NCBI GenBank assembly: GCA_030447505.1 | Contig: JAUJOT010000008.1 | Location: 97,400 to 161,399, forward strand | Direction: 5' to 3' | Origin: Solirubrobacteraceae bacterium | GTDB lineage: Bacteria; Actinomycetota; Thermoleophilia; Solirubrobacterales; Solirubrobacteraceae | Length of the DNA: 64,000 bases | Shown here: piece after piece, positions 12,119 to 29,475 of the stretch | How positions within the stretch are numbered: the stretch's first letter is position 1 | How the letters are laid out: each line of letters begins with the position of its first letter | Program-made: the position numbers and the translations under genes | The notes under the pieces: model-generated | What the model saw: the letters and a program-made list of their open reading frames with translations, nothing else | Told to the model about the DNA's origin: nothing | Database searches by the model: none

Positions 12119-12744
12119 TCCGCCACCTGCGCGAGCGCGTTGACGGCGGCCGCCGCGATCGCGCTGCCACCGCGCCGGCCGTGGACGACGAGGTACTCCA
12201 GGCCGGCGTCGTTGGCCGCCAGGGCGACCTTCGACTCGGCGGCACCGACGAAGCCGACTGGCACGCCGATCACGGCGGCGGGCCGCGCGATCTCGTCCTC
12301 CTCGATCAGCTCGAGCAGTCGAAACAGCGCCGTCGGCGCGTTGCCGACCACGACGAGCGCGCCGTCGAGCCGGTCGCGCCAATGCTCCAGCGCAGCCGCA
12401 CTGCGGGTCGTGCGCAGCGAGCGGGCGAGCTCGACGACGCCGGGCTTGCCCAGCGTGCAGACCACGTCGTTGGAGGCGGGCAGCCGCGCGCGCGTGACGC
12501 CCGCGGCGACCATCGCGGTGTCGCAGAGGATCGGGGCGCCCGCGCGCAGCGCACGCTCGGCGGCCACGCCGAAGTCCGACGAGAACGCCAGATCGGACAC
12601 GAGGTCGACCATGCCGCAGGCGTGGATCATCCGCACCGCCACGCGCTCGAGGACCGGATCCAGGCCGGCGAGGTCGGCTTCGGCGCGGATCGTGGCGAAC
12701 GACCGGCGGTAGATCTGCGCGCCGTCGCGCTCGTAGACGATCAT
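12115..12744 (-). CDS. cobH: precorrin-8X methylmutase
   Basis: ATG at 12744 sits in an ATGA overlap with the cobG stop. RMIHACGMVD, VVGNAPTAL and GFVGAAESK are present. Confidence 0.9.
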   Translation of the reverse strand: MIVYERDGAQIYRRSFATIRAEADLAGLDPVLERVAVRMIHACGMVDLVSDLAFSSDFGVAAERALRAGAPILCDTAMVAAGVTRARLPASNDVVCTLGKPGVVELARSLRTTRSAAALEHWRDRLDGALVVVGNAPTALFRLLELIEEDEIARPAAVIGVPVGFVGAAESKVALAANDAGLEYLVVHGRRGGSAIAAAAVNALAQVAE

Positions 12745-13958: not shown

Positions 13959-14039
13959 GACGCCAAATCTATTCGGTCTCCCCGCCCGCGAGCACCCCGA
14001 TCGGAGCCGGCCGGCGCTCCGGCAGCTACCGTTTCGACG

Positions 14040-14372
14040 ATGACCTGGCCCGTCGCCTCCGGCTCGCTGCTGCTCGGCTTCGCCGTCGCCCAGGCGACCG
14101 GCATTCGCCCGCTCGGCGGGATCGTGCTGATCGCGGGCTGCGCGTGGTGCGCGATGCGCTGGCTGCGCGCCGCCGGAGCGGCGCGCACGGCGGCCCTCGT
14201 CCTGATCTACGTCGGCGCGTTCGTGCTGTCGCACGTCGTCGCCGACGCGCTCGGCGCCTGGCCGTCGGTCCTGCTTGCGGCCGCGGTCACCGGGATCGCG
14301 GCCTACGTGCTCGCCGACAGCGCGACCGGCGGCGGCGTCAGTCCTGCCCGCGCTCGACCTTTACGCCCGTGA
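14040..14372 (+). CDS. small multi-pass membrane protein (hypothetical)
   Basis: ATG at 14040. The 110-aa product has 3-4 hydrophobic helices (LLLGFAVAQATG, IVLIAGCAWCAM, LVLIYVGAFVLSHVV, VLLAAAVTGIAAYVL). Its 3' end overlaps the convergent gene by 35 nt. Confidence 0.5.
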   Translation: MTWPVASGSLLLGFAVAQATGIRPLGGIVLIAGCAWCAMRWLRAAGAARTAALVLIYVGAFVLSHVVADALGAWPSVLLAAAVTGIAAYVLADSATGGGVSPARARPLRP

Positions 14373-14889
14373 ACTCCGTGTCGACGGGCTTCGCGAAGCG
14401 ACAGCCGTTGATCTCGTCGTGGCGGTGGAACGTCGGCGGCTCGATGTGCACCTTGAGCGTGTACTCGCCGTCGCTGGGAACCTCCCAGTTGCGCCCGTAG
14501 TGGTAGATCATCGGGTGCCACAGCAGCGGGTGCTCGTGCGTGCCGACCTCGTTGCCGTCAGGGTCGATCAGCGTGGCGGTCACGTTCAGCCCCGGGATGA
14601 AGCGCCCGTCTGACGCATCGCAGACCGCGATCTCCACATGCAGGTTCTCGTTCTCGGGCTCATGCCAGGCGAGCTTGCCGTCCTGCCACATGTACATCCC
14701 CTCGGCCTCCTCGATCGCGTAGGCGACGAGGTACTCGTCCGCGGGGTGCATGCCGCCGTCGTGGGCGACGCTCTCGGCCATGTGGTCGAGCGCCTCGCGA
14801 TAGGCCTCGCCCTGCCTGCGGGCAAGCTCGAGCTGCTTTGCGTCGGCTTCCGAGCTGGTCGGATCCATCGGTGGGTTCTCTGTGCTCAT
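14338..14889 (-). CDS. cytoplasmic His-rich protein resembling the P19/Tp34-type 'iron transport' (PF10634-like) fold; function uncertain
   Basis: ATG at 14889. YLVAYAIEEAEGMY..., NLHVEIAVCDASDGRFIPGL, LLWHPMIYHYGRNW and the YTLKVHIEPPTFHRHD pattern are present. There is no signal peptide. Confidence 0.7.
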   Translation of the reverse strand: MSTENPPMDPTSSEADAKQLELARRQGEAYREALDHMAESVAHDGGMHPADEYLVAYAIEEAEGMYMWQDGKLAWHEPENENLHVEIAVCDASDGRFIPGLNVTATLIDPDGNEVGTHEHPLLWHPMIYHYGRNWEVPSDGEYTLKVHIEPPTFHRHDEINGCRFAKPVDTEFTGVKVERGQD

Positions 14890-15517
14890 GCCTGTGCGGG
14901 TACCCCGCGGCCGGACCCGTCTACCGGGTCCGCGCGATGGTTGGCAGGGCTGGCACTGCGGGCGGGGACAAGCGAGCTTCAAGCCGCTGGTCTCGTCGCG
15001 CAAGCCGGCGCTTTCATCGCCACCGCGAACTCTGCAGCGAATCGCGGCGGCGGGGCAAGATTGACGCAGAGCCGCGATCAGGATGCTGATTCGGTGCGTA
15101 GCCGGTCGGGCTGCAGCGCTGCTTACTTTGAGGAGCCTGCCTGACCCCGCGCTCGCAGCCGCTACCACGGCGGGCCGTAACGCATCGACGTTTCCGTTCG
15201 CTGTCGTTCGCGTTACGTCGCGCGGTCGCAACGGTTACATCTGCATTACATCGCCGAGCGTCCGCGGCCACTAGGACGCGGTGTACAAAGCCGAACGCGC
15301 AGGTTCGACAGCCGGTCGATAGCGCGCGCTGCGTCGCCGCGGCACGCTTTCGTTGCCCAGTCACTCGAGCAAGTCGTCGTGCGCGGTGGGCGTCACGCGG
15401 CCTGTCATTTGTCCTGGCAAGGGCCGCCGGTCGACCGGTGGCATGCAAGGACTGGGCGCAATGCAGACGCCCGTCCGCCGGCAGCTCGGCCTCGTCGCAG
15501 GAATAGAAAGAAGGCAG

Positions 15518-16366
15518 ATGGCTTACCTCAGCCCAGCGGAGTACACGACCAAAGCGGTCGATGCCGGCGCGTCAAAGGTCCTCATGTCGACTCGCGACAC
15601 CCTGATCCGCTCCACGATGGCTGGGGCAATCCTCGCGCTCGCCGCAGCCTTCGCAGTGACGATCTCGGTGCAGACCGGAGAGCCGTTGGCCGGGGCAGTC
15701 CTCTTTCCCGTCGGTTTCGTCCTGCTCTATCTGCTCGGGTTCGACCTGCTGACGGGCGTCTTCATGCTGACGCCGCTTGCCCTCCTCGACAAGCGGCCCG
15801 GCGTGACGTGGCGGGGCATCCTGCGCAACTGGTCGCTCGTCTTCGTCGGCAACTTCGCCGGCGCCTTCTTGGTCGCGCTGATGATGGCGACCACGTTCAC
15901 CTTCGCCTTCACAGAAGTCCCCGACGCGGTCGGCCAGAAAATCGGCGCCATCGGCGAGAGCCGGACGCTCGGGTACGCCGACCATGGCGCCGCCGGGATG
16001 CTCACGCTCTTCATCCGCGCGATGCTCTGCAACTGGATGGTCTGCACCGGCGTGATCGCCGCGATGATGTCGACGACGGTGACGGGCAAGACGATCGCGA
16101 TGTGGCTGCCGATCATGCTCTTCTTCTACATGGGCTTCGAGCACTCCATCGTCAACATGTTCCTCTTCCCGTCGGGCCTCCTGCTCGGCGGCGACTTCAC
16201 GATCGGGGACTACTTGGTCTGGAACGAGATCCCGACGGTCGTCGGCAATCTCGTGGGCGGCCTGGCCTTCGTTGGCTTGACGCTCTATTCGACCAATCTC
16301 CGCACTGGCTCGAAGAAGCTCCCGGCGAGCAAAACGGTCGCGGCCGAGAAGGTCGCGGCGGGATGA
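15518..16366 (+). CDS. formate/nitrite transporter (FNT) family channel
   Basis: ATG at 15518 follows GAAAGAAGG. LFPVGFVLLYLLGFDLLTG, CNWMVC and MGFEHSIVNMF are FNT signature regions. Confidence 0.9.
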   Translation: MAYLSPAEYTTKAVDAGASKVLMSTRDTLIRSTMAGAILALAAAFAVTISVQTGEPLAGAVLFPVGFVLLYLLGFDLLTGVFMLTPLALLDKRPGVTWRGILRNWSLVFVGNFAGAFLVALMMATTFTFAFTEVPDAVGQKIGAIGESRTLGYADHGAAGMLTLFIRAMLCNWMVCTGVIAAMMSTTVTGKTIAMWLPIMLFFYMGFEHSIVNMFLFPSGLLLGGDFTIGDYLVWNEIPTVVGNLVGGLAFVGLTLYSTNLRTGSKKLPASKTVAAEKVAAG

Positions 16367-16387
16367 TCTCGGGAGCGATGACCTGAG

Positions 16388-16819
16388 ATGCACGAGCGGA
16401 TCGATGCAGCGCGCCGGGCCGCCGGCCTGAGCTGGACCGAGCTGGCCCAGAGGGTCGGCGGGCCGCGCGTGCACACTACTGCCGCGCTGTTCGGTCAGCA
16501 CCCGCTCTTGGCTGAGCAGGCGCGGCGAGCCGCCGACGCGCTCGGAATGGACGCCGAGGAGACCGAGCGCCTGATCGAGATCCCGAGGGAAAGGATCGGA
16601 TCGAGGTTCGAGCTTCCGGCCGATCCGACGCTCTACCGCTTCTACGAGGCTCTCGCGGTGTACGGCCCGGCGCTCCGCGCCCTCATCCACGAAGAGTTCG
16701 GCGACGGGATCATGAGCGCCATCAACTTCAACATCGATCTCCGGCGTGTTGCGCATCCTGGTGGCGACCGCGTCGAAGTCGTACTCAACGGCAAGTTCCT
16801 CCCTTATCAGTGGGAGTGA
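16388..16819 (+). CDS. cynS: cyanase (cyanate hydratase)
   Basis: The N-terminal HTH-like half and the C-terminal EFGDGIMSAINFNIDL...NGKFLPY cyanase signature are both present. Confidence 0.9.
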   Translation: MHERIDAARRAAGLSWTELAQRVGGPRVHTTAALFGQHPLLAEQARRAADALGMDAEETERLIEIPRERIGSRFELPADPTLYRFYEALAVYGPALRALIHEEFGDGIMSAINFNIDLRRVAHPGGDRVEVVLNGKFLPYQWE

Positions 16820-16871
16820 GAACCCCGCCGAGCTCGCAGTGGCGGTCATCGCCCTTCTAACTGCGGGACGC

Positions 16872-16890
16872 CAACCGGACGCGCCGGTTG
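16872..16890 (+). terminator. hairpin downstream of cynS
   Basis: CAACCGG-ACGCG-CCGGTTG, 52 nt after the stop. There is no clear T-tract. Confidence 0.35.
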
Positions 16891-17268
16891 AGTGGAGGTG
16901 AGAGCGCCCCTTCTCGTCGAAGAGCAGCGTTCTCGACCTTGCCGGTCGAATCCTTGAACCAGACCGATGGAGGAACCTCTGCGGGGACAGAGCCGCGAGA
17001 GTGTCGCAATGCGCGAGAACCAGCGCTCTCGTCTGCGCCGGCCTGCCCCTGAATCGGCGTCGCTATGTACCTGACGATTAGCACCGTGCCATGCTCAGGT
17101 TCCGGCTCTACTGAGCCGCGGCGGCTCGCTCCGCGGGCGTTCATCCTTCGCGGCAGCTTCGATCTCCGCATTGTTGAGGCGAGCGTGGGGCCTTCCTGTG
17201 CGCCTTCTTCACCGAGACGACGACTCCGAGATGAGCGCGCAGCCATGACGTTAGAATACGAACCTCGA

Positions 17269-17821
17269 TCAAACCTCGAGTATGGCGCGCATCACGGCAA
17301 CAAACTCCGAAACGCGCGCTCGGTCAAGCGCGCTGAGCAGCTCGCCGACCGTCCTGCCGCCGCCCCAGGCCATCGCCTGCCGCAGGATGACGTCGCGGAA
17401 GAGCAGCGGCTCCTCATTGGCGAGCTCCGCCAACCATTCATCCGGATTCATCACTTCGACGCCCACTGAACGTAGCGCGTCGCGATCGTAGCCTTGATCG
17501 AACGTGAAAATGACCTGCGCTTCCCCGGCGATAGCGAGAGCACACACGTGCTCGTCGTCGGGGTCCGCAGTGAACGTTGACATCTTGGTGTCTAGCGACA
17601 GCGCGGAGAGGTCGGAACGGCCATTCGGAAAGGCCGTTGTCAAGTATCCGACCCAACGCCTCGCAACATCCTCGGACACACCTTTGCCCTGACGAAGCGC
17701 ACCTTCAGCCTCAGCCAAGAGTTCGTCGCTCCAAGATTAGGTCAAGCAGTCGAGCGTCGGTGGCGGCTCGGCCCAGCAGCTCGTGGAGTACGCGCGAGTA
17801 GATTACATCGACATCTAGCAC
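17269..17821 (-). pseudogene. PIN_3-type PIN-domain toxin gene split by a 1-nt frameshift
   Basis: GTG at 17821 gives VLDVDVIYSRVLHELLGRAATDARLLDLI, then stops at 17711. The next frame continues WSDELLAEAEGALRQ...DPDDEHVCALAIAGEAQVIFTFD to 17269. The two frames can only be joined between 17711 and 17739. Confidence 0.75.
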
Positions 17822-17847
17822 CGCCCGAAGAGGGCGACCAGCATGCC

Positions 17848-18093
17848 TCACTCGAGAGGTGCTCCAGCCTCGTCAAGACCGCGGCTGTGTGCGTCGGCAT
17901 GCTCGCGCGCCCGCTCACGAGATTGCTCAAACGCCACGACGCTGCTACGTGGGATCTGCGCCGAGCTCCCGGCCTCCGGGCCCTGTGAAGCCAGCGCCCC
18001 AATGCGCACGAGGTCGAGTACGTGCTCGCGCGTATAGCCAAGTCGTTGTGCCGTTTCGCTGACTGACAACGTCTCCTGACGCTCCCCTGACAT
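17848..18093 (-). CDS. HTH_17/excisionase-like DNA-binding protein, likely antitoxin of the PIN gene (may instead be the C-terminal domain of a longer protein)
   Basis: ATG at 18093. LSVSETAQRLGYTREHVLDLVRIGAL...IPRSSVVAF is present. The stop lies 26 nt upstream of the PIN start. The frame stays open upstream to 19455. Confidence 0.55.
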   Translation of the reverse strand: MSGERQETLSVSETAQRLGYTREHVLDLVRIGALASQGPEAGSSAQIPRSSVVAFEQSRERAREHADAHSRGLDEAGAPLE

Positions 18094-19005
18094 CCCACTC
18101 CTGCTTGTCCTGGCAGCTTCAGCCGGAACTTCGTCCGGCGGGAAGATCGTCGATGTGCCAGTCCCCGTCGCGCCATACGGAACGATCGCTAACTCCTCCG
18201 CCTCAGCTATGACACGTCCCTCGGGCAGATACAACCACTCCATGCCGACGTAAAGTTCCTCCCCGAAGAGCGTTGCGTACAGCGGCTGAAGCAATGAGAA
18301 CTGGAAGGGGCCTTCGCCGTCGGGCGGGGCTGCGCCGGGCGCCATCGACACTCGCGTCCAAGTAATGGGCGACTTCGGCTGTCTAATAAGCGGAAGCAAG
18401 GCACTAACTGTCGTTGCGTCGCGAGCAGACGGTCGAGGCGGAGGCTTCAGGATCCTGCCGAGCCAGGCTTCAACCTCCGTTACATATCCGAGAAATTGTC
18501 TTCTCGCTTCAAGATCTTCGATTAGTTCATCGACGTCGGTTGGCCGATCGAGGGTTGCCGATATAAGCTGATGCTCGTCCGCGGCCTGGGTGATCGCGAC
18601 CACTTGTCCAAGCAGCGCCTGCAACATTATTTGCACCGCGAGGAACTGCTCGAGAGCTCCGCCGCGCCCCAGGGTGTAGCGCCAATCGAGGCGTGTTTCA
18701 ACGGGGTCGGAGCCGCGCATCGAGACAAACAACTCGAGCCCGCCGGCTGAGGCGTGCAGCGTCCCGGCCCAGCCGCGAGCAGGCTTGGTCTCAGTCAGGA
18801 CCATCGCCAACTCAGGCGTGCCAGCGCGAACGATGATGGCTCGCCGAAAGGGAAGCGGTTCCAGCGCCTGCTCGTTCGCAGCGGTATCCGAAGTGGCTCC
18901 GGGATCGGCGGCGAGGTGCCGTTCGACTGGACCGGCCTCTAGGCTCGCTCCGAGGCCTGCGGCGACCGTGGCACGCATTCTCCTCTGGGCATTCTCAACA
19001 AGCGC
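18094..19005 (-). other. protein-like open frame of unknown function, continuous with the HTH ORF
   Basis: Balanced composition and lower GC (e.g. LDWRYTLGRGGALEQFLAVQIMLQALLGQVVAITQAADEHQLISATLDRPTDVDELIEDLEARRQFLGYV). I recognise no motif. Candidate starts are at 18978, 18804 and 18720. Confidence 0.4.
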
Positions 19006-19455
19006 TGGGGCTTGCTCTCGGCCGAGCGCGTCGATCCGCTGCGGCGTTAGACCGCCAATCGGGTAGTCGAATGCTGCGGGTGGCTGGCTCACAGGGCGAT
19101 CATCGCTACCAAGGAAACGACGTTGCAGTCCGGAGTAGGCACAGACCATCGACTTGTGCTCGGTATTCTGCCCCCAGTCGATCAGCACCTTGCCGCCGCG
19201 CAGCGCCTTCGCCATGCGCGAGACCACGCGCTCGGGCCACTGCGCTTCGAGAACCTCCGCGATCGTCCGCGCCGCGGGCTTCGTCTGCGCGTACGTGGCG
19301 GCGCTGTTGAGCGGCACGTACACCTGCAGGCCCTTCGAGCCCGACGTTTTCGCGAGCGCGCGCAGTCCCGCGCCCGCGAGCATCTCGCGCAGGCGCAGCG
19401 CGACCTCGGCGCAGCCCAGCACATCGTGCTGACGGGAACATCGGTTGATCACCAC
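19006..19455 (-). pseudogene. remnant of a LigD-type NHEJ primase-polymerase domain (C-terminal half only)
   Basis: LRALAKTSGSKGLQVYVPL...RGGKVLIDWGQNTEHKSMVCAYS...RPVSQP matches the LigD-Pol C-terminal motifs. The DxD region is degenerate (VVINRCS). Upstream frames (19456-19614) carry stops. Confidence 0.6.
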
Positions 19456-19614
19456 ATCTCGCCGCCGAAGCGATTCCGCGCCTGATCCCCGGCGAGACGC
19501 GGTCTCGCCGCTCAGAAGCTTCGGCTCGCATGATCCCGCGTCCAGGCAAAGTAGTCACCGGTGGCGGTCGAGTCACGAAAGTGATCGCGCACGGCTCGGT
19601 GTGGGCCGTAGCGT

Positions 19615-20305
19615 TTACCTGAGCGTGGCCAACGCCGTGATCGCCGGATCGTCCGACGTCATCGGCGCGCTTAAGACTCGCATAGCACGCGACCGCTGGC
19701 CGTGAACAGGGAGCCATATCTGTTGACGTCCCACGCGTGCCGGCACGACAAGGTTCTCGGCTTGGAGCATCTTAAGCACCGGGGTGACGTATTGCTTCGC
19801 ATCTTCGGCGAGTCCTCGTCGAAGTGCACCGTCCCGGCGACCCGTGCCTCGCTGAAGGTACAGCTTCTTGAGGACGGTCAAGCCTACCCGCGTACCAAGC
19901 GGCAAGCGCATCCGCAGAATGGCTTGTGTTGTGCTAGTGGTTTCAGAGTACGCCTCAAAGTCGCAGTCCACAAATTTCCCCTGCGGAGGATCCGATTCGT
20001 TCGATACGCCCGAGACTGTGCCGAATGTGCATCTGATAAAAGTAGGCGTGCTCGACACAGTCAGAGGTGCGTTGACGTCCAAGCGCTGAACGATGGAGTC
20101 AGCCAAGCGCAGGCCATCGAACGGAGTATCCGAATATCCGAGGTTGAATTCGTCTATCCATACGCCTTCGATAGGGATTTGGCTTCCCGACAACTCGTCC
20201 CCAGCGGCGTCGATCGACCGAACCAAGTCGAACGCTAGTGTGTTCCAGCCCCGCTCAATAGCGCGATCGACCGCAGCCCGTGTCGAAGCGGTTGGGAGTG
20301 CCGCG
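19615..20305 (-). pseudogene. 3' part of the IS-split NACHT/STAND NTPase gene (C-terminal, putative sensor region)
   Basis: The frame is open from the IS boundary (…PTASTRAAVDRAIERGWNTLAFDLVRSIDAAGDE…) to the stop at 19615. It is in frame with 21744-23353 once the IS and one TSD copy are removed. Confidence 0.8.
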
Positions 20306-21743
20306 GTGCCGTCCCAGGCGCTGGGGGAATCGTAGGGCGGGCGTAGCCTCCGCTTTGACCGACAAGTCGAAGCTGATGGAGGTACGCCCGCATGAAGAAG
20401 GTAGTCCCCAGCGAGCGGCTGCGCCGCGAGCTTGATGATGTCCTTGCCGCCATCGGCGAGGAGCAGGATCCGATCGAGGCGGTCGCGCGGCTCGGTGCGC
20501 GGCTGATCCTCCAGCAGGCGCTGGAGGACGAGGTGACCGAGTTCGTCGGCCGCGGGCGCTACGAGCGCCGGCGGCGGCGAGGAGGTGATCTACCGCAATG
20601 GGTTCGCCGAGCCCTCGACGGTGCGCACGACGAGCGGCCCGACGGTGATCGAGCGCCCGCGCGTGCGTGACGCAACCGCCGTTGGGTTCGAGTCGCAGGT
20701 GCTCGGCAAGGGCGTCGCGCGGACGCACGCGTTGGAGGCGTTGGTGATCTGCAGCTTCCTGCGCGGCCTGTCGGTGCGTGACGTCGAGGCCGCGCTAGAG
20801 GAGTGCTTCGGCGAGCAGGTGATCGCCAAGTCGACCGTCGCGCGGGTCTGCAAGGACGTCGCCGACCGCTACGCGGCCTGGTGCCAGCGCGACCTCTCGG
20901 TGCACGATCTCGTCTATTGCTATCTCGACGCGATCTACCTCAAGCTCAGGCCGACCGACGAGCCGGCCGAGGGCGTGCTGGTCGCCTGGGGGATCACGCT
21001 GGAGGGCCAGAAGGTGCTGCTCGGGCTGCAACTCGGATCCAGGGAGAGCTACGAGTCGTGGCTTGACTTCGGGCGCGATCTCAAGGCCCGCGGGATGCGA
21101 GCGCCGGCGTTGATCGTGGCCGACGGCGCAGCCGGGATCTGGAAGGCCACCAGGGAGCTGTTCGAGCACGCGGCCGAGCAGCGCTGCACCGTCCACGCGC
21201 TGCGTGAATCTCACGTCCAAGCTGCCCGAGCGACTGCACCGCGAAGTCAAAGCCCGCTACTGGCAGGTCCTCGACGACGCCGTCTCGGCCGCCGAGGCGA
21301 AGGCCGGACTGCTGGCCCTGGCCGGCGACTACCGCACCGCCTACCCGTCGGCGATGCGCGTCATTGACGACAACATCGACCAGCTCGTGGCGCATCTGCG
21401 CTTCCCACTCGAGCACCGCAAGCGCACCAGGAGCACAAACCTGCTCGAGCGCACGTTCGTGGAGGTCCGCCGGCGGACGAAGATCATCGGCCGCTTCCCG
21501 GGCGAGACCTCGGCACTGTCGCTGATCTGGGCCGTCCTGGAGCTCGCCAGCCGCGGCTGGCGCGGCATCACCATGACCCCCAGGCCGTCGCGCAGATCGA
21601 ACGCGTCCGCCGCGGCCAAAGCCCCCGCACCGACGTTTCCACCGCCCTTGCCGCTCAGGAGGTGATTGCGGCGTGAAGTAAAATTCACTCACACACCGCG
21701 GAAGCTACGCCCACCGCGTTTCCCCACTCCCTGGGACGCCACC
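20306..21743 (+). mobile_element. IS256-family insertion sequence (about 1.44 kb) with a 9-bp target-site duplication
   Basis: Direct repeat AGTGCCGCG at 20297-20305 and 21744-21752. Imperfect terminal inverted repeats of about 40 nt share CGTCCCAGG...GGGCGTAGC(C/T)TC. Confidence 0.85.
20392..21665 (+). pseudogene. IS256-family (Mutator-like) transposase with two +1 frameshifts
   Basis: Three consecutive frames: ...LQQALEDEVTEFVGRGRYER | GGGEEVIYRNGFAEPSTV...EQRCTVHALR | NLTSKLPERLH...STNLLERTFVEVRRRTK. The shifts lie in the CGG/GGC run around 20566-20580 and at CTGCGT-G-AATCTC around 21204. Confidence 0.85.
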
Positions 21744-23353
21744 AGTGCCGCGTCATCAATGCGGTAGGCGAGTACCTCGGCACCGAGCGCGCTTATGGTC
21801 TTTTTCCAACCCCTAGGATCGAAGCCTAGATGATCAGAATGGGGGTCAAGTGCAAAGCGAAGCGGGTCTCCGGCGGCGACTGCATCGGCTAGCGCGGTGT
21901 CAATGAACTTGCGCGTTCCTGTCACGGGGTCACCAACTGCCAATCCAGGCAGTCGCTGCAACAGCACGTAATCATTGACATCTGCTGCTCGGCCGACAAC
22001 ATCGTGGAAGGAGTGCGCGATCTGCTCGAACGTGAGCGGCCCCAAACCGTCTTCCGTACTCCTAGCGTAGGTGGCGAGCCTCTCGAGGATTTCACGGACG
22101 ACTCGGCCGGCGATACCCGCATCCGGCCGCGACTCGCGCTCTGAGATGCCGTCCAACAGATGGCTCCATCCGGCTGCAGGACCTGCTTGGAAGTCGCTCG
22201 TCGGCAGAAGGTGTCGCGCCGAGAGGTAGCCAAGCAGGTACGGCCGGCGGGGGAGCCATGTTGGGATGTCCTTGCGCTGCAAGAAGGCTTGTAGCTGGTC
22301 GTCGGTGAAGTCATTCAGCGACAACTGCGGGGTTCCCGGCCCGTAGCCCAGACCTTCCCGGCGCTCATCGTCGTTATCGAAGTAATATTCGCGACCGGCT
22401 ACGAGAAGGCCCGCGTCTGACGGGCTACTCGCAAAGAATGCCCTGACTAGTTGGACTGCTCTGCGTCGAGCGTCTCGGACGAGGTTGGCGTCCCCAGACC
22501 AGTTGGTTGCCGCCATCTCGTCGAACCCGTCAAGGAGAAGAATTGCGTAACCCGACTTCCACGCTCGTACTAGCTGGTGTGGTGCCGCGAGGCCGATGAG
22601 CGCACCGTGCCTGGCCAAAGCTTCTGACGGATCAGTCTGGCCCACGTGCTCGCCTAAATTCAGGTGCACTGGAAACCTCATGCTCAAGCTTTGCTTGTAC
22701 GAGGCAGCCAGTGCGAAGAAGACCTCTCGCGTGGTCATGCTCTTGCCGGCACCAAAGTCCCCCAGCATCACGAGCCGACCGCCATCCGCGAGTCGGGTTG
22801 ACATGTCCTGCACCGTCCATGTAGCGCCACCCGAGCCAGTCTCTAATATGTCTAGTCCGACGTATGCGCCGAGTTCCTTGTAAGAGCCCGTTTCGTCAAG
22901 AGACCGTGCGCTGCCGAACGGGTGGTCGGATCGAGCTTCAAGGTATGCGCGGGCATCTATGAGACGAGACCGAAATTGGCTAAAGGACACCGGCTGGACT
23001 GCTGCGTTCTTCAGTGCCTTGATCACTTGACGCTGATCGGCAGTCGGCTCGTGCAGAGTGACGAACCACGCCTTGACGGCATGCATGGGGTATCGACGGC
23101 CGTAATCTCGTGCCAAGTCGTCGAGCTTCTTGCCGTCCTTGGCCGCTTTCGCCTTGGTGCGGTCGGTCGTTGCCTCGATGAGTGCTACTTGATCTTCCGT
23201 GATGAAGATGCCATCCCTTTCGCGCCCTCCGACGATCGCGGCGCCGCTGTTCTCCGCCTGAGGCCACATCGCTCGGGCGATCCGGAGAACCTCGGCTTCG
23301 AACTCGGCAGCGTTCATGGAGATGAGCTTATCGGCGTCTACGACATGCCGCAT
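21744..23353 (-). pseudogene. 5' part of the IS-split NACHT/STAND NTPase gene (nuclease-like N-domain plus NACHT)
   Basis: ATG at 23353 (alternative 23317). Walker A LVMLGDFGAGKSMTT and NACHT-type Walker B AILLLDGFDEM are present. The N-terminal roughly 150 aa carry a possible PD-(D/E)xK-like pattern (RERDGIFITEDQVALIEATTDRTK). The annotated stop at 21689 lies inside the IS end. Confidence 0.8.
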
Positions 23354-23752
23354 GGGGCTGCGCGGCCTGAGGCAGCTCCCCAGCGAGCCGGAACCGTCAT
23401 GGCTGACGTTCACGCCACCGTCACGTAAGAGAGTTTCGCTTCTCGACGATAGGGGCGCTCTTCGCATTCGACGCCGAGCTCTCGCAAGTCGATCACGCGG
23501 TCGGCCCCAAGGCCCCGGCCGAGCCGGGACCCTGAGCACGGACGTTAACGGAGATCTCCGACAACGCGTACCAGTTTCGCGGTAGGAGCGACTTGCGGTC
23601 TTGCACCGGCGGTTGCGTGAATACGGTCTGTGGCATCGGCGGCTTGCTCCCTGACGGTTTGGACCTCGGCTCGACCGGCTGGCTGCGCCACCCGCCCGCA
23701 ACCGTGCACCACCCGCGATGGTCAGCGCGGTGGTTCGTCCGGTCGCTCCGTA

Positions 23753-23777
23753 AGGCGGTCCGCTAACGGAACCGCCT
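23753..23777 (-). terminator. hairpin downstream of the SGNH hydrolase gene
   Basis: AGGCGGTCCG-CTAA-CGGAACCGCCT, about 76 nt after the stop at 23853. Confidence 0.4.
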
Positions 23778-23852
23778 ACTGCGACTGGCAGTCTCCGCCA
23801 CTCGGCTGGCGGATCTGGAGGGCAGGGTCGGATCGGGCGGCGATCAACGCCG

Positions 23853-25436
23853 TCACGGGCCGCGCGACAGCAGGCGCGACAGCAGCCCGTAGCGCTCGTC
23901 GAGGAAGGCGAGTAGCTCGAGCACGCTCGTCAGCGAGCGCGGCGGCGCTGAGATCAGCGTGTCGCGGCGCAGCAGCGCGGCGAAGTCGATCTGCGTCGGG
24001 CTGTCCGCCGGCCCGCCGGCGAAGCGCACGCCGGCGAGCTTCATGACGCCGATGAACTCCTCTGCCATCAACCCGTAGGCGATCGTGGTCGGGTGCACGC
24101 CATCGAGCGAAAACAGCCCGCCAGCCGAGCGCCCACGGTCGGGGCCAGAGGCGAGAAAGCGCGAGTCGGGCGGCGGGCGCAGCTGCGCCAGCGCCGGTGG
24201 CAGCTCGTACGGGGTCCACCACTCCGGCCGCGCGGCCGCGTCGTCGATGTAGCGTCGCGCGGCCAGTCGGTCGAGCTGCCCCGACAGGTCGAGCAGGTAC
24301 CAGTCGCGCCCCTCCTCACGCGCGGCGCGGACGGCGTCCTCGAGCGCATCGTTGTAGAGATCGATCGCGCTGTCGATCGCGCGCGCCTGCTCGCCGCTGA
24401 TGTACGGATGGCGGCGCGGATGAAACTGCGCATCGCCGATCCATGGCCGCGTGTAGTAGGGGAAGTAGCGTGGGTCGTCAGCCAGCTTGGGTCCGACGCC
24501 GCGGCTGACCGGCGCGATCGTCACGTGCGGGACGGTGGCGAAGATCACGTGGCGCGCACGGATCGCGCGCACCGTTTCGAGCGCCATGTCAAGCTCCTCG
24601 CGGAAGTGCGCGGGCGTCCAGACCGTGTAGTGGCGCTTGCCTGCCGGGGCGTCATACGAGCTGCGCGCCGACCAGCAGACGCGCAGCTCGGTCACGGCGC
24701 CGAGCGCGTTGTTGGAGCCGAGCGCCACGATCAGCGTCTCGATCCCGTCGCCCTCGCCGGGCGTCTGCACGGTGCCGTCGGCCCCCAGCGCGGCGGCCGT
24801 CTGCAGCGGGCTGAGCTTCTGCTGCCCCTCGGGTCCGGGCGCCAGCACACGCAGCGCGGCGCGCTCGTTGGCGTTCTGGACGAGCTGCTTGAAAAGCGCG
24901 TCGGTCGGCGCCTCGATGTCTTGCCGGCAGGCCTCGGCGCTGCGCGTGTTGGCGTCGTACAGGTCCCAGCCGTAGACGGCGAGGTTGTGGTTGCGCGTCG
25001 CGAAGCGGCCCTCCGGCTGCGCGTCGCGCTCCCAGAAGTCCTCGATCCTGTCCATCAGGTCGCGCACGCGCAGCCCGGCGAGCGGCAGCTCCCAGGGGCT
25101 GACCTTGTCGCCGAAGCGGTCCTCGAGCTCGCGCAGCACGTACTCGAGGTTCAGAGGTAGCCCGCCGAAGCGCTCGTAGCTGGGGTGCCGGAAGCGGTCA
25201 TAGATGCCCAGCTCGCGCGCGATCAGCGCCGGATAGGACAGATGCGTGTTGAAGATCGCGCCGCTCTGGAAACCGTGCGTCAGCGAGTCGCCAACGGCCA
25301 CCAGGCGGTGCATCGGCTCCCCCGCGCGATCGCGATCGACCGCGACGCCGAGCGTCGGGTCGAAGTTCGGCACGCGCGCCGGCCGCCGCGCGGCCACCTC
25401 GTCGGGCGGCTCACTGATGCATTCTGCTGTCGCCAT
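23853..25436 (-). CDS. SGNH/GDSL-family hydrolase (lipase/esterase-like)
   Basis: Block I VAVGDSLTHG, block III LGSNNA and block V DGVHPT are present. The start is uncertain (ATG at 25436 or 25469). Confidence 0.8.
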   Translation of the reverse strand: MATAECISEPPDEVAARRPARVPNFDPTLGVAVDRDRAGEPMHRLVAVGDSLTHGFQSGAIFNTHLSYPALIARELGIYDRFRHPSYERFGGLPLNLEYVLRELEDRFGDKVSPWELPLAGLRVRDLMDRIEDFWERDAQPEGRFATRNHNLAVYGWDLYDANTRSAEACRQDIEAPTDALFKQLVQNANERAALRVLAPGPEGQQKLSPLQTAAALGADGTVQTPGEGDGIETLIVALGSNNALGAVTELRVCWSARSSYDAPAGKRHYTVWTPAHFREELDMALETVRAIRARHVIFATVPHVTIAPVSRGVGPKLADDPRYFPYYTRPWIGDAQFHPRRHPYISGEQARAIDSAIDLYNDALEDAVRAAREEGRDWYLLDLSGQLDRLAARRYIDDAAARPEWWTPYELPPALAQLRPPPDSRFLASGPDRGRSAGGLFSLDGVHPTTIAYGLMAEEFIGVMKLAGVRFAGGPADSPTQIDFAALLRRDTLISAPPRSLTSVLELLAFLDERYGLLSRLLSRGP

Positions 25437-25793
25437 GCTGAGTGTCCTCCTCCGCCTCTCCGGGTTCATCGCGGCGCCCCAAGCGCCCGTCCCTGATCAG
25501 ACAGAGGCGGCGCCGGGCGGCCTGATACGGGCCGCGGCACGCGGGGCCGATTACCCACCCGCCCAGATTCGCGTCCCACCGTTTTCGGCGCTCCGGTATG
25601 GCAGCGCGCGGTTGCGTCTCTCTCGGCCCGTCCCGACGGGCCCGATTGCGCGAGGAGGTTAAACGTAGCCCCGAGCGCTGGCATGGGCAGGGCTGCCCGG
25701 ATAGCGTTCGGTCAATCGGGTCGGCAGGACGCCGCTCGCCTTCATGACCGCCCGATCGGCGCTCACGACGGCCGCGATCGGCAAGGGGGAACA

Positions 25794-27404
25794 ATGTCCA
25801 GAACGACACCATCGATCGTCGCGACGGTAGCCGTCGCGATGCTCCTGGCGGCGAGCCCGATCGCCGTCGCCGACCCCGGCGAGGAGCACGGCCACGACGA
25901 GATCCCGGTGCCGACGCCGACACTGCCGCTGACGCCGCCGGGGTTGTCGAACTTCGCATTGCTCGACGCGGCCGACAAGGACGGCACGATCAACTCCGAC
26001 ATCGCGTTCTACGGCCGCAACGCGTACGTGGGCAACTACGACGGCTTCCGGATCATCAACATCTCGAGGCCGACAGACATGAAGGTCCGCAGCGACATCC
26101 GCTGCCGCGCCAACCAGGGCGACGTGTCGGTCTTCAAGGCCGACGACGGCCGGCGCATCCTGCTGCAGTCGATCGACCGACCGGTCACGGCGCCGGGCTG
26201 CAACGCCGTCGACACGCCGCTCGTCAGCGAGCTGGAAGGGCCCAATGGCCAATCCACGACGGACCCCGCGAACGCCCAGACGCGCAGCCGCGCGCGCTTC
26301 GGCTACGAGGGGCTGCGGATGTTCGACGTGACGAACCCGAGGAAGCCGCGCTTCCTGCGCTTCTTCCGTACCGCATGCGGCTCGCACACGCATACGCTCG
26401 CGCCGGACCCCGCAAACGGGATGGTGCACGCCTATGTCGCGTCGTATCCGTTGGGCGCCGGCATCACGCCGCAGGTCGACCGGGCGCAGTCCGACAGCCT
26501 CGGGCTGACGTGCAAGGCGCCGCACCAGAAGATCTCGATCGTCCACATCCCGCTGAACGACCCGGCGGCGGGAACCGTCGAGCAGAAGCCGCTGAGCTCC
26601 GACACCGAGCCCTATGACCCCGACGGCCAGCCGCGCAGCGACGACGGCACCCAGCAGGGCAACGCGCCGGCGTTCATCGCCTGCCACGACCACCAGGCGT
26701 TCCTGCCGCGCGACATCATGATCGGCTCGTGCGCCGGCGACGCGCAGTACTGGTCAATCAGGGTCCGGGGCAACCCGACGTCGGCCGACGGGGAGCCGCA
26801 CACGCACATCAAGCGCGAGGACGGCACGACCGAGTCGTTCGACTTCATCCACAACGCGGTCGCGACATGGGACGGCAAGGTCGCCGCGATCACCGACGAG
26901 AGCGGCGGTGGCGTCGAGCCGCGCTGCGACGGGCCGAACACGAAGCGCGGCTTCACGTTCTTCTATCCCCTCGTGGAGCCGGGCACGGCGGTCGACGGCT
27001 TCGCCGACCTGAAGGGCCGCTACGTCATCCCCCGCCCGCAGAACACGGAGATCTGCGTATCGCACAACGGCAGCGTCCTGCCGACCAGGGACGGACGCTA
27101 CCTGCAGGTCCAGGCCTTCTACCAGGGCGGCAACTCGTTCTACGATTTCACGAACCCGGCGGCGCCGCGCGAGCTCGGCTTCGCCGACCTCGACGACGAG
27201 CTCGGGGCCGCGGACTCGTGGTCGACGTACTGGTACAACGGCACGGTCTTCGTCAACGGCGGCCTCAACCGCCGCGGCGCGACCGCGAACCGCGGCTTCG
27301 AGGCGTACGCCGTCCTCATCCACCCCAGCCAGGTCTCACGCAAGAGGTGGCGCTGGTCCAATCCGCAGACGCAGGAAGAGTTCCAGGCGCCGATCGACGA
27401 GTAG
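25794..27404 (+). CDS. secreted LVIVD-repeat / beta-propeller protein
   Basis: ATG at 25794 follows AAGGGGGA. Signal peptide IVATVAVAMLLAASPIAVA is present. Recurring units include YDGFRIINISRPTDMKV, GLRMFDVTNPRKPRFL and SFYDFTNPAAPREL. Confidence 0.75.
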   Translation: MSRTTPSIVATVAVAMLLAASPIAVADPGEEHGHDEIPVPTPTLPLTPPGLSNFALLDAADKDGTINSDIAFYGRNAYVGNYDGFRIINISRPTDMKVRSDIRCRANQGDVSVFKADDGRRILLQSIDRPVTAPGCNAVDTPLVSELEGPNGQSTTDPANAQTRSRARFGYEGLRMFDVTNPRKPRFLRFFRTACGSHTHTLAPDPANGMVHAYVASYPLGAGITPQVDRAQSDSLGLTCKAPHQKISIVHIPLNDPAAGTVEQKPLSSDTEPYDPDGQPRSDDGTQQGNAPAFIACHDHQAFLPRDIMIGSCAGDAQYWSIRVRGNPTSADGEPHTHIKREDGTTESFDFIHNAVATWDGKVAAITDESGGGVEPRCDGPNTKRGFTFFYPLVEPGTAVDGFADLKGRYVIPRPQNTEICVSHNGSVLPTRDGRYLQVQAFYQGGNSFYDFTNPAAPRELGFADLDDELGAADSWSTYWYNGTVFVNGGLNRRGATANRGFEAYAVLIHPSQVSRKRWRWSNPQTQEEFQAPIDE

Positions 27405-27425
27405 CGAGGCGCTCAAGCGCGACGG

Positions 27426-27453
27426 CGAGGGGGTGGCTCACGCCGCCCCCTCG
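27426..27453 (+). terminator. hairpin downstream of the propeller gene
   Basis: CGAGGGGG-(12 nt)-CCCCCTCG, 22 nt after the stop. Confidence 0.5.
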
Positions 27454-27465
27454 ACTGCGCGCGTC

Positions 27466-28851
27466 TCAAGCAGGTCGAGTGCTCAGCAGGCCCCGCGGGT
27501 GGGGCCAGGCGCAGCGGGCACCAGGTAGGCCAGAACGCCGACAGCCACGCGATGGCGGGAGTTCCACAACCGCACCGCGAGCTCGGACCCCGGCTCCTCG
27601 ACGAGGAGCTTGATCAGCGACGAGGTGTCGAAGTAGAGGGTCAGCGACGCTGGTCGGCGACGAGATCAGAAACGGGACCCTTCGCCTTGACCCGCGGACG
27701 CGCATCGCGCAGCTACATCGGCGAGTGCCTGACTCGCCGTCGCTGATGGGCGCGAAGGACTTCGGATCGGTCGGCGCCTCGGTGCAGATCGCAAGTGCCG
27801 CCGGGCGCGCGTCGTCGAGGCCGAGCGACTCCCACGTACGCTCGGGCCGGCGCTCGCGCAGGGCCAGCAGGCCGGCGACGCCGGATGCGCCGGTCTCGCC
27901 GCAGACGAGGTTGTCGAGCAGCAGCAGCCGCACGGCCTCGTCGGCCGAGCGGTCGTCGATCGTGCAGAACGCGGCGATCCCCGCCGCCATGTCCGGCAGC
28001 GCGACGCGCGACGCGAGGCCGCAGTTCAGCCCCGCCATGATCGAGCGGTGCGGCCCGGCGACGAGCACGGGCCGGCCCTCGCGCACCGCCTGCAGCGCGC
28101 ATGCCGCGTCGGCCGGCTCGACGCCCACGATCACCCGCCCAGGCGACGCCAGCGCCCGCACCGCGGCGGAGGCGAGCGCGCCGACGCCGATCTGGATCGC
28201 GACGAGCGGCGGCGGCTCGCCGCCCAGCTGCTCGGCAAGCTCCTCGAAGATCGTCGCGTAGCCGTCTGCCACCCAGCCGGGAACGAGCTCGTAGCCGGGC
28301 CACGAGGTGTCGGAGATCACGAGGTGGTCGTCGCTGGCGAGCGCTGACGAGAGCCTCACGGCGTCGTCGTAGCTTCCCGGCACGACGTCGACGGTGGCGC
28401 CCTCGCCGGCGATCGCGTCGATCCGCGCCCGGGCGCTGTGCTCGGGAATCAGGATCCGCGCGTCGAGGTCGAGCAGCCGCGCGATCCGGGCGACGGCGCG
28501 GCCGTGGTTTCCGTCCGTCGCGGCGACGAGCGTGAGGCCGTCGAGGCGAGGGATGATCGCGCGCAGCTCGTCGAACGTCGCGGCGGGCTCGAGGCCGGCG
28601 CGCAGGCTCAGCGCGCGACAGGTCGCCCACGAGGCGCCGAGGATCTTGAACGACGGCAGGCCGAAGCGCTCGCTCTCGAGCTTGACGAGCAGCCGCGAGA
28701 GCCCGAGCCCGGCAGCGGCGCTGGGCGCCTCGGCGACCGCGGTCGGCTCGTAGCCGGGCATGCTGCGGTGAAAGCGCGCGGCGCGTGGATCGGGCCTGGC
28801 CGGCACGCTGACGGCGCGATCTGCGTTGTCGAGGAACGCGACGAGGCTCAT
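27466..28851 (-). CDS. dpaL: diaminopropionate ammonia-lyase (PLP-dependent) with an atypical Arg-rich C-terminal tail
   Basis: ATG at 28851. ESERFGLPSFKILGASWA, VAATDGNHGRAVA and ICTEAPTDPKSF are present. The last 70-80 codons overlap the vapBC remnant in another frame. The rest of the 1126-aa track ORF is antisense shadow. Confidence 0.8.
   Translation of the reverse strand: MSLVAFLDNADRAVSVPARPDPRAARFHRSMPGYEPTAVAEAPSAAAGLGLSRLLVKLESERFGLPSFKILGASWATCRALSLRAGLEPAATFDELRAIIPRLDGLTLVAATDGNHGRAVARIARLLDLDARILIPEHSARARIDAIAGEGATVDVVPGSYDDAVRLSSALASDDHLVISDTSWPGYELVPGWVADGYATIFEELAEQLGGEPPPLVAIQIGVGALASAAVRALASPGRVIVGVEPADAACALQAVREGRPVLVAGPHRSIMAGLNCGLASRVALPDMAAGIAAFCTIDDRSADEAVRLLLLDNLVCGETGASGVAGLLALRERRPERTWESLGLDDARPAALAICTEAPTDPKSFAPISDGESGTRRCSCAMRVRGSRRRVPFLISSPTSVADPLLRHLVADQAPRRGAGVRARGAVVELPPSRGCRRSGLPGARCAWPHPRGLLSTRPA
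27483..27644 (-). pseudogene. truncated VapC-type PIN toxin fragment (N-terminus only), preceded by a VapB-like C-terminal stub
   Basis: LTLYFDTSSLIKLLVEEPGSELAVRLWNS is a canonical VapC N-terminus. It starts at CTG inside CGCTGACC, where an upstream stub (…PRVKAKGPVSDLVADQRR, 27641-27712) stops. It ends after 53 aa. Confidence 0.6.
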
Positions 28852-28884
28852 GCGTCCGAGCGTACGGGGTACTCGCAGGCCGTC

Positions 28885-29424
28885 ATGTCCGCCCCGACGC
28901 CAGCCGTGGATCGGAATCCTGCGACCGCGCCGAGGGCGCCTGCGTTCCTGATGGGCGTCGGGCTCGGCGGCTTCATCGACGGGATCCTGCTGCACCAGCT
29001 GCTGCAGTGGCACCACATGCTCAGCAGCACGGCTGAACATCCAGTCGGCACGGTTGCCGGCCTGCAGGCGAACACGCTGGCCGACGGGTTCTTCCACGTC
29101 GCGACCTGGATCTGCGTCGTCGTTGCGATGCTGCTGATCGTTCGCGGCTGGCAGCGACGCGAGCTCGCGCCACCGTGGCGCGTGCAGGTCGGGATGCTGC
29201 TCGCCGGCTGGGGCGCGTTCAATCTCGTCGAGGGTCTCGTCGACCACGTGATCCTCGGCATCCACCACGTGCGCGACGACCTCGGCGGCCCGCTCGGCTG
29301 GGATCTCGCGTTCCTCGCCTTCGGGGCGCTGCTGATCGCCGTCGGGCTCTGGCTGGCGCGGTCGAGCGGTCGCGCAGAGGCGTCCGGCGCCGAACCGTCG
29401 GGCGGCGCGCCGCGCCCGACATAG
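28885..29424 (+). CDS. DUF2243-type membrane protein
   Basis: ATG at 28885. LGGFIDGILLHQLLQWHHM and LVEGLVDHVILGIHHV are present, with four hydrophobic helices. Confidence 0.7.
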   Translation: MSAPTPAVDRNPATAPRAPAFLMGVGLGGFIDGILLHQLLQWHHMLSSTAEHPVGTVAGLQANTLADGFFHVATWICVVVAMLLIVRGWQRRELAPPWRVQVGMLLAGWGAFNLVEGLVDHVILGIHHVRDDLGGPLGWDLAFLAFGALLIAVGLWLARSSGRAEASGAEPSGGAPRPT

Positions 29425-29475
29425 CGTGTGACGCAGCCCACGCCCTCGCGCCTGGGCCGCGGGTAGTGTGGCGCC

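Follow-up and report, generated by a model that had tools for sequence, protein, structure and literature searches.

The 64,000-nucleotide stretch analysed here (the window) contains a variable slot flanked by cynS and a GDSL-like gene, in which a low-GC cargo of 6.4 kb includes, on the minus strand, a gene for a NACHT NTPase split by an insertion sequence (IS) of the IS256 family (Table 1). The flanks of the cargo are shared with a 99%-identical sister genome (blastn, 99.35% identity over 23439-35441 and 99.13% over 10133-17038), with nothing shared between them: in the same slot the sister genome holds another cargo, of 2.68 kb, with a different gene carrying an Mrr domain. Near-identical genomes thus have different genes with restriction-endonuclease (REase) domains in this slot. 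Direct repeats bounding the 6.4-kb cargo were sought without success; a search for an intact syntenic orthologue of the split gene or for an empty site gave neither, and the nearest homologues of the restored protein (71%, 64% and 59% identity) have a different genomic setting or are located on short contigs.

Table 1 Features of the split NACHT gene, its insertion element and the surrounding cargo (positions in the window; residues of the restored 763-aa protein).
Feature	Position	Strand	Remarks
Low-GC variable cargo, 6.4 kb	17039-23438		Split gene, PIN-like ORF, HTH_17 ORF, LigD Prim-Pol remnant
3' fragment of the NACHT gene	19615-20296	-	Residues 537-763 and stop codon
Conserved C-terminal domain, winged-helix-like (from secondary structure)	19669-19929	-	Residues 660-746; motif LTVLKKLYxQxGxGRR..ALxRGLD
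Region assigned as beta-solenoid-like	19942-20184	-	Residues 575-655; AlphaFold secondary structure, consensus, periodicity and entropy
Target-site duplication, left copy AGTGCCGCG	20297-20305		8 or 9 bp
IS256-family insertion sequence	20305-21743	+	Single copy in the window; imperfect terminal inverted repeats
Transposase pseudogene	20392-21665	+	Three frames: 20392-20670, 20585-21367, 21204-21665
Stop of the truncated 5' fragment	21689-21691	-	From the right end of the IS, after 17 IS-encoded codons
Target-site duplication, right copy AGTGCCGCG	21744-21752
5' fragment of the NACHT gene	21744-23317	-	Residue 13 to ~536 (numbering of the preliminary description); homologue-supported start
NACHT module	21914-22786	-	Residues 190-480
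Walker B ILLLDGFDE	22517-22543	-
Walker A GDFGAGKS	22739-22762	-	Residues 198-205
N-terminal PD-(D/E)xK-like REase-fold domain (predicted)	22979-23317	-	Residues 13-125

The insertion element

A preliminary description of this DNA had proposed that a 9-bp direct repeat brackets an element of about 1.44 kb with imperfect inverted ends belonging to the IS256 family, and each of these points was borne out. The repeat AGTGCCGCG occurs on the plus strand of the window in two copies only, those listed in Table 1. Because G20305 may be counted with the repeat or with the end of the IS, the target duplication (AGTGCCGC[G]) is 8 or 9 bp long and the element 1,439 bp, or 1,438 bp if this nucleotide is counted to the repeat. 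Both IS ends read GGTG[C/G]CGTCCCAGG, the inverted arms (20305-20329 and 21719-21743, 25 nt) are 80% complementary, and a further matching block lies inside the ends (20336-20353 and 21698-21715). The blastn comparison of the IS with the window returned the self-match only.

The IS holds no single intact transposase ORF, the coding sequence being spread over three frames with a possible third frameshift at a C-run near 21575. Taken singly, the ORFs match the IS256 and Transposase_mut models in successive stretches; the transposase scored 192 bits with NCBIfam NF033543 (transpos_IS256; cut-off 150), and the frame-joined protein (429 aa) matched PF00872 (Transposase_mut) in one stretch with 247 bits (positions 24-376 of 379). 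The element resembles the IS256 family in its transposase, which matches IS256 and Mutator models, in its size of ~1.44 kb, in its imperfect terminal inverted repeats and in its 8-9-bp target duplication; it differs in a transposase ORF broken by 2-3 frameshifts and in a DNA identity of merely 65-69% to actinobacterial IS256-family transposase genes from a plasmid collection.

The split gene and its restoration

Excision of 20306-21752 in silico (equivalently 20297-21743) joins the two fragments as ...RIDDAALPTAST... and, as had been predicted, restores one in-frame ORF of 2,292 nt (763 aa) free of internal stops. In agreement with the earlier claims, the present copy is inactivated and owes its stop codon to the IS: the 5' fragment reads on through the IS-encoded codons, so that the translation of ORF 21689-23701 ends in ...RIDDAALVASQGVGKRGGRSFRGV before the stop. 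The 3' fragment lacks an evident start. Alternative starts of the 5' fragment lie at 23353 (preliminary description) and at 23467 (NCBI product P0001); since the closest homologues begin at residue 13 of the preliminary numbering, which is kept here, the real start is likely the ATG at 23317 (M13), giving a protein of 751 aa. In terms of annotation, the recorded 592-aa "protein" is an artefact: it is truncated, its tail is encoded by the IS, and its start is probably wrong.

Copies of a repeated IS are generally hard to assemble and the transposase frameshifts could be read errors, which would suit a misplaced IS and a split that is an artefact of assembly; alternatively, the two flanks might normally be separate genes, a case also raised in the preliminary description. 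Either explanation is scarcely credible, as a perfect 9-bp duplication flanks the inverted ends exactly, the two fragments join in frame, and at 75 of 80 homologous loci the whole protein is encoded in one piece by an ORF of at least 721 aa. It is also improbable that the insertion is functional, whether through expression of a sensor-less REase-NACHT fragment (residues 1-536 plus the 17-aa IS tail) as a variant, altered or constitutive, or through the IS acting as a reversible switch. The 5' fragment does retain its start together with every NTPase and REase motif, no further lesion is present elsewhere in the gene, and precise excision might in principle proceed through the 8-9-bp direct repeats; however, the frameshifted transposase has no second IS copy beside it in the window, and the break removes the best-conserved C-terminal domain from a protein whose homologues are almost always full length.

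Taken as a whole, the locus is probably best read as a stand-alone NACHT gene of the bNACHT69 lineage (see below) that was pseudogenised by insertion of an IS256-family element at codon ~536; the element would have entered with its 8-9-bp target duplication, leaving a pseudogene and a non-functional copy.

Predicted domains of the restored protein

The structure of the restored protein was predicted with AlphaFold (pLDDT 89, pTM 0.76), with an alignment in which the fused window segments were aligned to full-length homologues. The motifs GDFGAGKS and LLLDGFDE, on which the preliminary description had based a NACHT (STAND) NTPase, are present as Walker A and within Walker B and are conserved in the family (K204 of Walker A in 249/250 members, D275-G-F-D-E279 in 250/250); the latter matches D[GAS]hDE, the Walker B motif that defines NACHT proteins (Kibby et al. 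2022/2023). Pfam NACHT (PF05729) scored 25.2 bits on the restored protein, against a gathering score of 26.7, and a precomputed match to this model exists in most homologues. Foldseek matched the model to NLRC4 (4kxf, E 8.1e-10), Avs3 (8dgc, E 1.6e-9), NOD2 (5irn, E 2.9e-9) and also NLRP3, and the module is modelled with the NBD-HD-WHD fold of solved NLR NACHT modules, which upholds the assignment.

The possible PD-(D/E)xK pattern noted earlier in the N-terminal region gained support from weak Pfam matches in 24 members (NA-iREase1 10/24, Card1_endonuc 8/24, Mrr_cat 2/24) and from Foldseek, whose top 50 matches to the domain model were almost all PD-(D/E)xK nucleases (among them Nt.BspD6I, 1.5e-3, Cdn1, Can2, Card1, XisH and SduA), the leading ones with a probability of 1.00 and weak E-values. 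The model gives this domain the alpha-beta-beta-beta-alpha-beta core of the PD-(D/E)xK fold. The residues E19, D47, E60, T62, K69, D73 and K76 vary little or not at all among 250 members (E19 236/237, D47 247/247, E60 247/249), and the secondary-structure register puts the acidic E19, D47 and E60 at the canonical metal-binding positions. The canonical Lys of (D/E)xK is missing, being Thr (E60-x-T62) in 247/249 members; K69, which lies on the following helix and is found in 242/250, might stand in for it. Kibby et al. catalogue the N-terminal domain found in this clade as "NACHT-associated inactive REase" (NA-iREase), a name that implies that these authors predicted inactivity. Given the Thr in place of Lys and this name, nuclease activity of the domain is doubtful. 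A sequence search of the PDB with full-length, N-terminal and C-terminal profiles returned P-loop noise only.

In the C-terminal region, sequence entropy peaks at residues 500-620. Residues 575-655, which fall where the family varies most, were assigned from the model as beta-solenoid-like, with ~3.5 repeats of ~22 residues and the motif F-x-x-C-x-F ... L-P. This region had no Pfam or PDB match; no Pfam pentapeptide match was obtained at E<=5 in 24 members, and the repeat period of ~22 contrasts with the 20 residues of pentapeptide coils. The segment that follows (helix-helix-helix-strand-strand, pLDDT above 90) shows lower entropy than the rest of the C-terminal half and, judged from secondary structure alone, would be winged-helix-like. 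In 24 members, the last 278 aa gave no match with Pfam, and Foldseek with a model of the N-terminal domain plus the helical and solenoid regions returned matches to the REase domain only and none to the helical and solenoid regions.

Distribution and genomic neighbours of the family

The restored protein has more than 900 homologues, single proteins of ~750-770 aa that align with 96-99% of its length. At E<=1e-30 the family falls into 688 clusters (50% identity), and it spans most bacterial phyla. A conserved partner gene was sought at 80 loci and none was found, the commonest neighbour family being present at 4/80. At least 14 of the 140 immediately adjacent genes matched restriction-modification (R-M) or PbeA models of PADLOC, and R-M models matched 0/108 genes at a distance of at least 7 kb; this enrichment of R-M genes, together with the location in a variable hotspot, is indirect support for a defence role. 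The entropy peak in the C-terminal region also speaks for such a role. Searches of the restored protein itself with PADLOC 2.0 and NCBIfam gave no usable match (a lone faint CARF_PDDEXK with PADLOC, E 0.023, residues 46-87).

Possible function and significance

The event at this locus amounts to ordinary pseudogenisation and not to a new system, because the family of the gene is already catalogued, though functionally unproven. As a routine IS kill of an accessory gene in a variable slot, the split gene matters chiefly for annotation, and, for studies of cargo turnover in Solirubrobacterales-like actinobacteria, the cynS/GDSL-like hotspot offers a natural handle. Of broader value is the family, which is widespread, uncharacterised and absent from PADLOC and has a strictly conserved, non-canonical REase active-site pattern.

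The intact protein would consist of four parts: the REase-fold domain, the NACHT ATPase, a fast-varying helical region with a short beta-solenoid, and the winged-helix-like C-terminus. In intact members, an invader-derived ligand would be bound by the variable C-terminal region, nucleotide-dependent oligomerisation of the NACHT module would gather the N-terminal REase-fold domains, and these, by analogy with bNACHT25/32 and Avs, would cut DNA in a defence of the abortive-infection type. A defence function of the family, the antiviral Avs/bNACHT-type role suggested in the preliminary description, is plausible, not proven. Counting against it are the empty defence entry of bNACHT69, the lack of a matching PADLOC model, the doubtful nuclease activity and an N-terminal domain unlike that of bNACHT25.

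The N-terminal domain could instead be catalytically dead and act as a DNA-binding or adaptor module, with the family signalling otherwise and perhaps not against phages; the output would then be either the C-terminal winged helix binding DNA, as in a STAND regulator like MalT or AfsR, or a recruited host effector. We consider this possible but doubtful. It fits the Thr that replaces the canonical Lys, the "inactive" NA-iREase1 as best Pfam match among members, the NA-iREase2 label on the clade-15 relatives, the lack of a recorded defence for bNACHT69 and the winged-helix-like segment as the best-conserved part of the C-terminal half. On the other side, E19, D47 and E60 are essentially invariant and are all kept, together with K69, in bNACHT69 at 24% identity; active REases without the canonical Lys exist (BamHI, BglII); unlike a local transcription regulator, the family has no conserved neighbour gene; and R-M genes are enriched beside its members.

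With an active nuclease, the bNACHT69-like family could, tentatively, be a genuine single-gene anti-phage NLR, comprising a variant active site (E...D...E-x-T plus the helix Lys), a small fast-evolving helical and beta-solenoid sensor and a conserved winged helix. If so, the negative result for bNACHT69 would reflect the wrong host or phages. Should an intact member be found to defend its host, it would represent an NLR-type sensor that is compact and new in its sensor fold, and the label of "inactive REase" would be overturned.

Comparison with known systems

The closest catalogued protein is bNACHT69 of Klebsiella pneumoniae (WP_087866631, 743 aa), of NACHT clade 15 (Kibby et al. 2022/2023), and profile comparison places the restored gene in its lineage. 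The N-terminal domain and the NACHT module are colinear in both proteins (hhalign probability 100%, E 4e-43, residues 4-396 against 20-422), so that the suggestion of the preliminary description that this may be an undescribed variant does not hold. D47, E60, T62, K69, D73, K76 and both Walker motifs are kept, and size and single-gene operon are the same; identity is merely 24%, in a comparison that spans the first 399 residues of bNACHT69. Table S1 of Kibby et al. lists in clade 15, beside bNACHT69, the architecture NA-iREase2+NACHT+Pentapeptide, in which the repeat region (~545-590) lies where the restored protein has its putative beta-solenoid. These "Pentapeptide" labels come from the authors' own profiles, whereas the Pfam pentapeptide models miss this subfamily. 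The "Phage Defense" column of the same work is empty for bNACHT69, the only relative tested (E. coli phage panel), and a literature search for "iREase" and "bNACHT69" found no report on function. Two other placements were rejected: clade 7 with bNACHT70, on the comparison with bNACHT70 (hhalign probability 0.8%; the Corallococcus "REase+NACHT" entry of clade 7 was left out), and the bNACHT25-type REase-NACHT proteins of clade 6 (N-terminal hhalign probability 0.2%).

The Avs/AVAST proteins (e.g. Avs3) share with the restored protein a STAND NTPase core (the Foldseek match to 8dgc), an N-terminal nuclease-type domain, a C-terminal sensor and stand-alone genes in variable regions. They differ in that the NTPase here is a NACHT-type one (DGFDE), the protein matches none of the Avs models in PADLOC, and the region after the NACHT module is ~280 aa long and not TPR-like, compared with at least 400 aa in the sensors clustered by Lee et al. 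2026.

The E. coli proteins bNACHT25 and bNACHT32 (clade 6), which are antiphage DNases with a REase-NACHT-NCH1 architecture, resemble the restored protein in their PD-(D/E)xK-fold effector, NACHT module and C-terminal sensor, all in a single gene for ~750 aa. The differences lie in the N-terminal domains, which have no detectable similarity, in the canonical Lys of bNACHT25 (ICK), missing here (EAT), in the NACHT clade, and in the C-terminal region, a helical NCH1 in those proteins but a predicted helical, beta-solenoid and winged-helix region here. Both require the REase residue D48 for defence and, upon activation, degrade DNA in a D48-dependent manner (PMC12169576), and they are the best experimental model for how a protein of this kind may work.

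Insertion anatomy and in silico restoration

The NACHT gene on the minus strand was destroyed by an IS insertion. The element is bracketed, as the preliminary description had it, by a 9-bp direct repeat (AGTGCCGCG) that occurs only twice on the plus strand of the window; imperfect inverted repeats (25 nt, 80% complementary) lie directly inside the two copies, and a second inverted-repeat block lies further in. Both IS ends read GGTG[C/G]CGTCCCAGG, so that G20305 is assignable to the IS, indicating a target duplication of 8 or 9 bp and an element of 1,438-1,439 bp. Removal of either 20306-21752 or 20297-21743 fused both minus-strand ORFs in frame, giving the uninterrupted ORF predicted for the first of these deletions (2,292 nt, 763 codons, no internal stops; junction ...RIDDAALPTAST...). 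The truncated 5′ ORF reads 17 IS codons before its stop, which is IS-encoded, as had been proposed.

The central ORF of the element scored 192 bits on NCBIfam transpos_IS256 (cut-off 150) and also matched Pfam Transposase_mut, assigning the element by sequence to the IS256 family, in agreement with the original proposal. The transposase is spread over three frames; the frame-joined product (429 aa) aligns continuously with Transposase_mut positions 24-376 of 379 (247 bits). This requires a minimum of two frameshifts; a third is probable at a C-run close to the 3′ end. Besides the insertion, the 2.29-kb host gene carries no lesions, versus two or three in the 1.3-kb transposase, which suggests either that an already defective IS copy inserted through a transposase acting in trans or that read or assembly indel errors account for some of the shifts. 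No further copy of the IS was found in the window, and the best DNA identity in the plasmid collection was only 65-69%, to actinobacterial IS256-family genes.

Features of the interrupted locus and of related loci
Feature	Coordinates	Strand	Remarks
High-GC flank	9800-16900		ordinary chromosome, syntenic with sister genome; CbiJ, TP_methylase, CbiC, NIR_SIR (cobalamin-biosynthesis-type), Fe2+ transport protein, formate/nitrite transporter, cyanase (cynS)
Cargo	17039-23438		6.4 kb; GC 0.62-0.64 (flanks 0.71-0.72)
PIN-like ORF	17269-17718	-	partial, sub-threshold PIN_3 match; just downstream of HTH_17 segment, toxin-antitoxin-pair-like
535-aa ORF	17848-19455	-	truncated LigD primase-polymerase start (Pfam positions 117-211 of 254, E 3e-28); HTH_17 end
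9-bp direct repeat	20297-20305; 21744-21752	+	
Inverted repeats, outer	20305-20329 / 21719-21743		
Inverted repeats, second block	20336-20353 / 21698-21715		
Transposase, three frames	20392-20670; 20585-21367; 21204-21665		
Stop of 5′ ORF	21689-21691	-	
Residue 234	~22652-22654	-	NLGEH
Start candidates	23317; 23353; 23467	-	favoured by closest homologues; preliminary description; NCBI (P0001)
Insert of sister assembly (L086)	11999-14678		2.68 kb, low GC, in the cargo's place
PIN-type toxin-antitoxin pair, locus L002	6755-7427		directly beside NACHT homologue in another genome
PIN-type toxin-antitoxin pair, locus L005	7145-7862		directly beside NACHT homologue in another genome

Full-length homologues and start codon

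In its homologues the gene is normally undivided: across 80 loci of species-representative genomes, 75 homologous ORFs reach at least 721 aa, and the taxa covered include Thermoleophilia, Streptomyces, Kitasatospora, Chloroflexota, Acidobacteriota, Proteobacteria, Bacteroidota and Planctomycetota, among others. Culturable hosts with an intact homologue include Streptomyces venezuelae ATCC 10712 (L067), Kitasatospora hibisci (L030) and Corallococcus coralloides (WP_164933303). More than 900 proteins matched the restored sequence; almost all of the top 120 are 745-775 aa long, with 96-99% query coverage, and the first three share 71%, 64% and 59% identity with it. The truncated product annotated in the genome of the window itself (P0001, the NCBI product of the 5′ fragment) has 592 aa. 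When 1.84 billion cluster representatives were searched with a profile, 688 matched at E ≤ 1e-30, rising to 1,165 at E ≤ 1e-10. The N-termini of the closest homologues align at M13 in the 763-aa numbering, so ATG 23317 is the likely start, giving a protein of 751 aa. The NCBI start falls outside the cargo, in flank DNA common to the sister genome.

NACHT module and C-terminal region

The proposed NACHT/STAND NTPase was supported by predicted structure and motif conservation. Pfam NACHT scored 25.2 bits, slightly below the gathering score of 26.7; the best PDB matches of an AlphaFold model of the restored protein (68-sequence input, pLDDT 89.1, pTM 0.76) were NLRC4 (8e-10) and Avs3 (1.6e-9), then NOD2 and NLRP3. 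The Walker A lysine (K204) is present in 249 of 250 full-length members and the D-G-F-D-E motif, of the type that defines NACHT modules (Kibby et al.), in all 250; from this conservation, an active NTPase would be expected. At residue 234 the near-invariant Arg of NLRDH is Gly here and in the three closest homologues, a clade-specific substitution, not decay.

The C-terminal 280 residues gave no Pfam, PDB-sequence or Foldseek match. In the model they form helices, approximately 3.5 beta-solenoid-like repeats of about 22 residues (F-x-x-C-x-F ... L-P) and a helix-helix-helix-strand-strand unit resembling a winged helix. Entropy along the sequence reaches its maximum at residues 500-620, the variable stretch in which the IS lies, and its minimum at 661-700; the 5′ product would have neither the solenoid nor the conserved C-terminal domain.

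Genomic setting

The locus between cynS and a GDSL-like gene is a cargo hotspot, since the sister assembly GCA_030446825.1, 99.1-99.35% identical on both sides of the cargo, carries a different insert. The 730-aa product of this insert carries an Mrr_cat match at its N-terminus (Pfam 22 bits, gathering score 21), lacks a P-loop and shows no similarity to the NACHT family. At the cargo ends, direct repeats were looked for and not found. For the flanking gene, the closest named relative comes from a Solirubrobacteraceae MAG (70% identity). Within the cargo, the 535-aa ORF is probably a ligD remnant reading through into a small HTH gene.

No conserved neighbour gene was found across the 80 loci, the most widespread family (a Type I methyltransferase) being present in four. 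PADLOC matches to Type I R-M subunits, Type IIG or PbeA were obtained for at least 14 of 140 immediately adjacent genes; among 108 genes at least 7 kb away there were no R-M matches, and CRISPR I-E at only one locus. Several homologues are flanked by PIN-type toxin-antitoxin pairs, and the gene in the window by a putative one.

N-terminal domain and relation to catalogued NACHT lineages

The N-terminal domain (residues ~13-125, alpha-beta-beta-beta-alpha-beta) is PD-(D/E)xK-like, as the preliminary description had considered possible. Weak Pfam matches among 24 members were to three REase-fold families (NA-iREase1 in 10, Card1_endonuc in eight, Mrr_cat in two). A second model, of this domain fused to residues 486-662 (pLDDT 89), matched almost exclusively PD-(D/E)xK nucleases in Foldseek (Nt.BspD6I, Cdn1, Can2, Card1, XisH, SduA; E from 1.5e-3, probability 1.00 for the leading ones).

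By analogy with Avs proteins and bNACHT25/32, E. coli REase-NACHT antiphage DNases (PMC12169576), the variable C-terminal region of intact members may sense an invader-derived ligand, whereupon ATP-dependent NACHT oligomerisation would cluster the REase-fold domains to act on DNA. We give this defence-nuclease model slightly better than even chances, the chief uncertainty being whether the predicted domain cuts DNA. That the domain is instead an inactive adaptor, or that the family has another output, seems less likely: the canonical Lys is replaced by an invariant Thr (T62) and the catalogue authors regard this domain type as inactive (Kibby et al.), but E19, D47 and E60 are essentially invariant across the 250 full-length members, in which K69 on the next helix is also nearly invariant, and D47 and E60 are kept in bNACHT69 of Klebsiella pneumoniae.

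The preliminary description was thus correct in its observations and largely so in its interpretation; the suggestion of an undescribed variant did not hold. NACHT clade 15 (Table S1 of Kibby et al., bioRxiv 10.1101/2022.07.19.500537) holds NA-iREase2+NACHT+Pentapeptide proteins from Paenibacillus, Vibrio cholerae, Ignavibacteriales and Desulfobotulus, with the iREase at residues ~4-125 and the repeats at ~545-590, and also bNACHT09, bNACHT34 and bNACHT69. Neither bNACHT70 (clade 7) nor the N-terminus of bNACHT25 (clade 6) showed similarity to the family. Residues 1-399 of bNACHT69 (743 aa; a one-gene operon with an empty 'Phage Defense' column in Table S2 of Kibby et al.) are colinear with the family profile (hhalign probability 100%, E 4e-43, 24% identity) and, besides D47 and E60, retain T62, K69, D73 and K76. 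Given this colinearity and the clade 15 listing, the architecture is not undescribed, and the interrupted gene is a new but dead member of a known, uncharacterised NACHT lineage.
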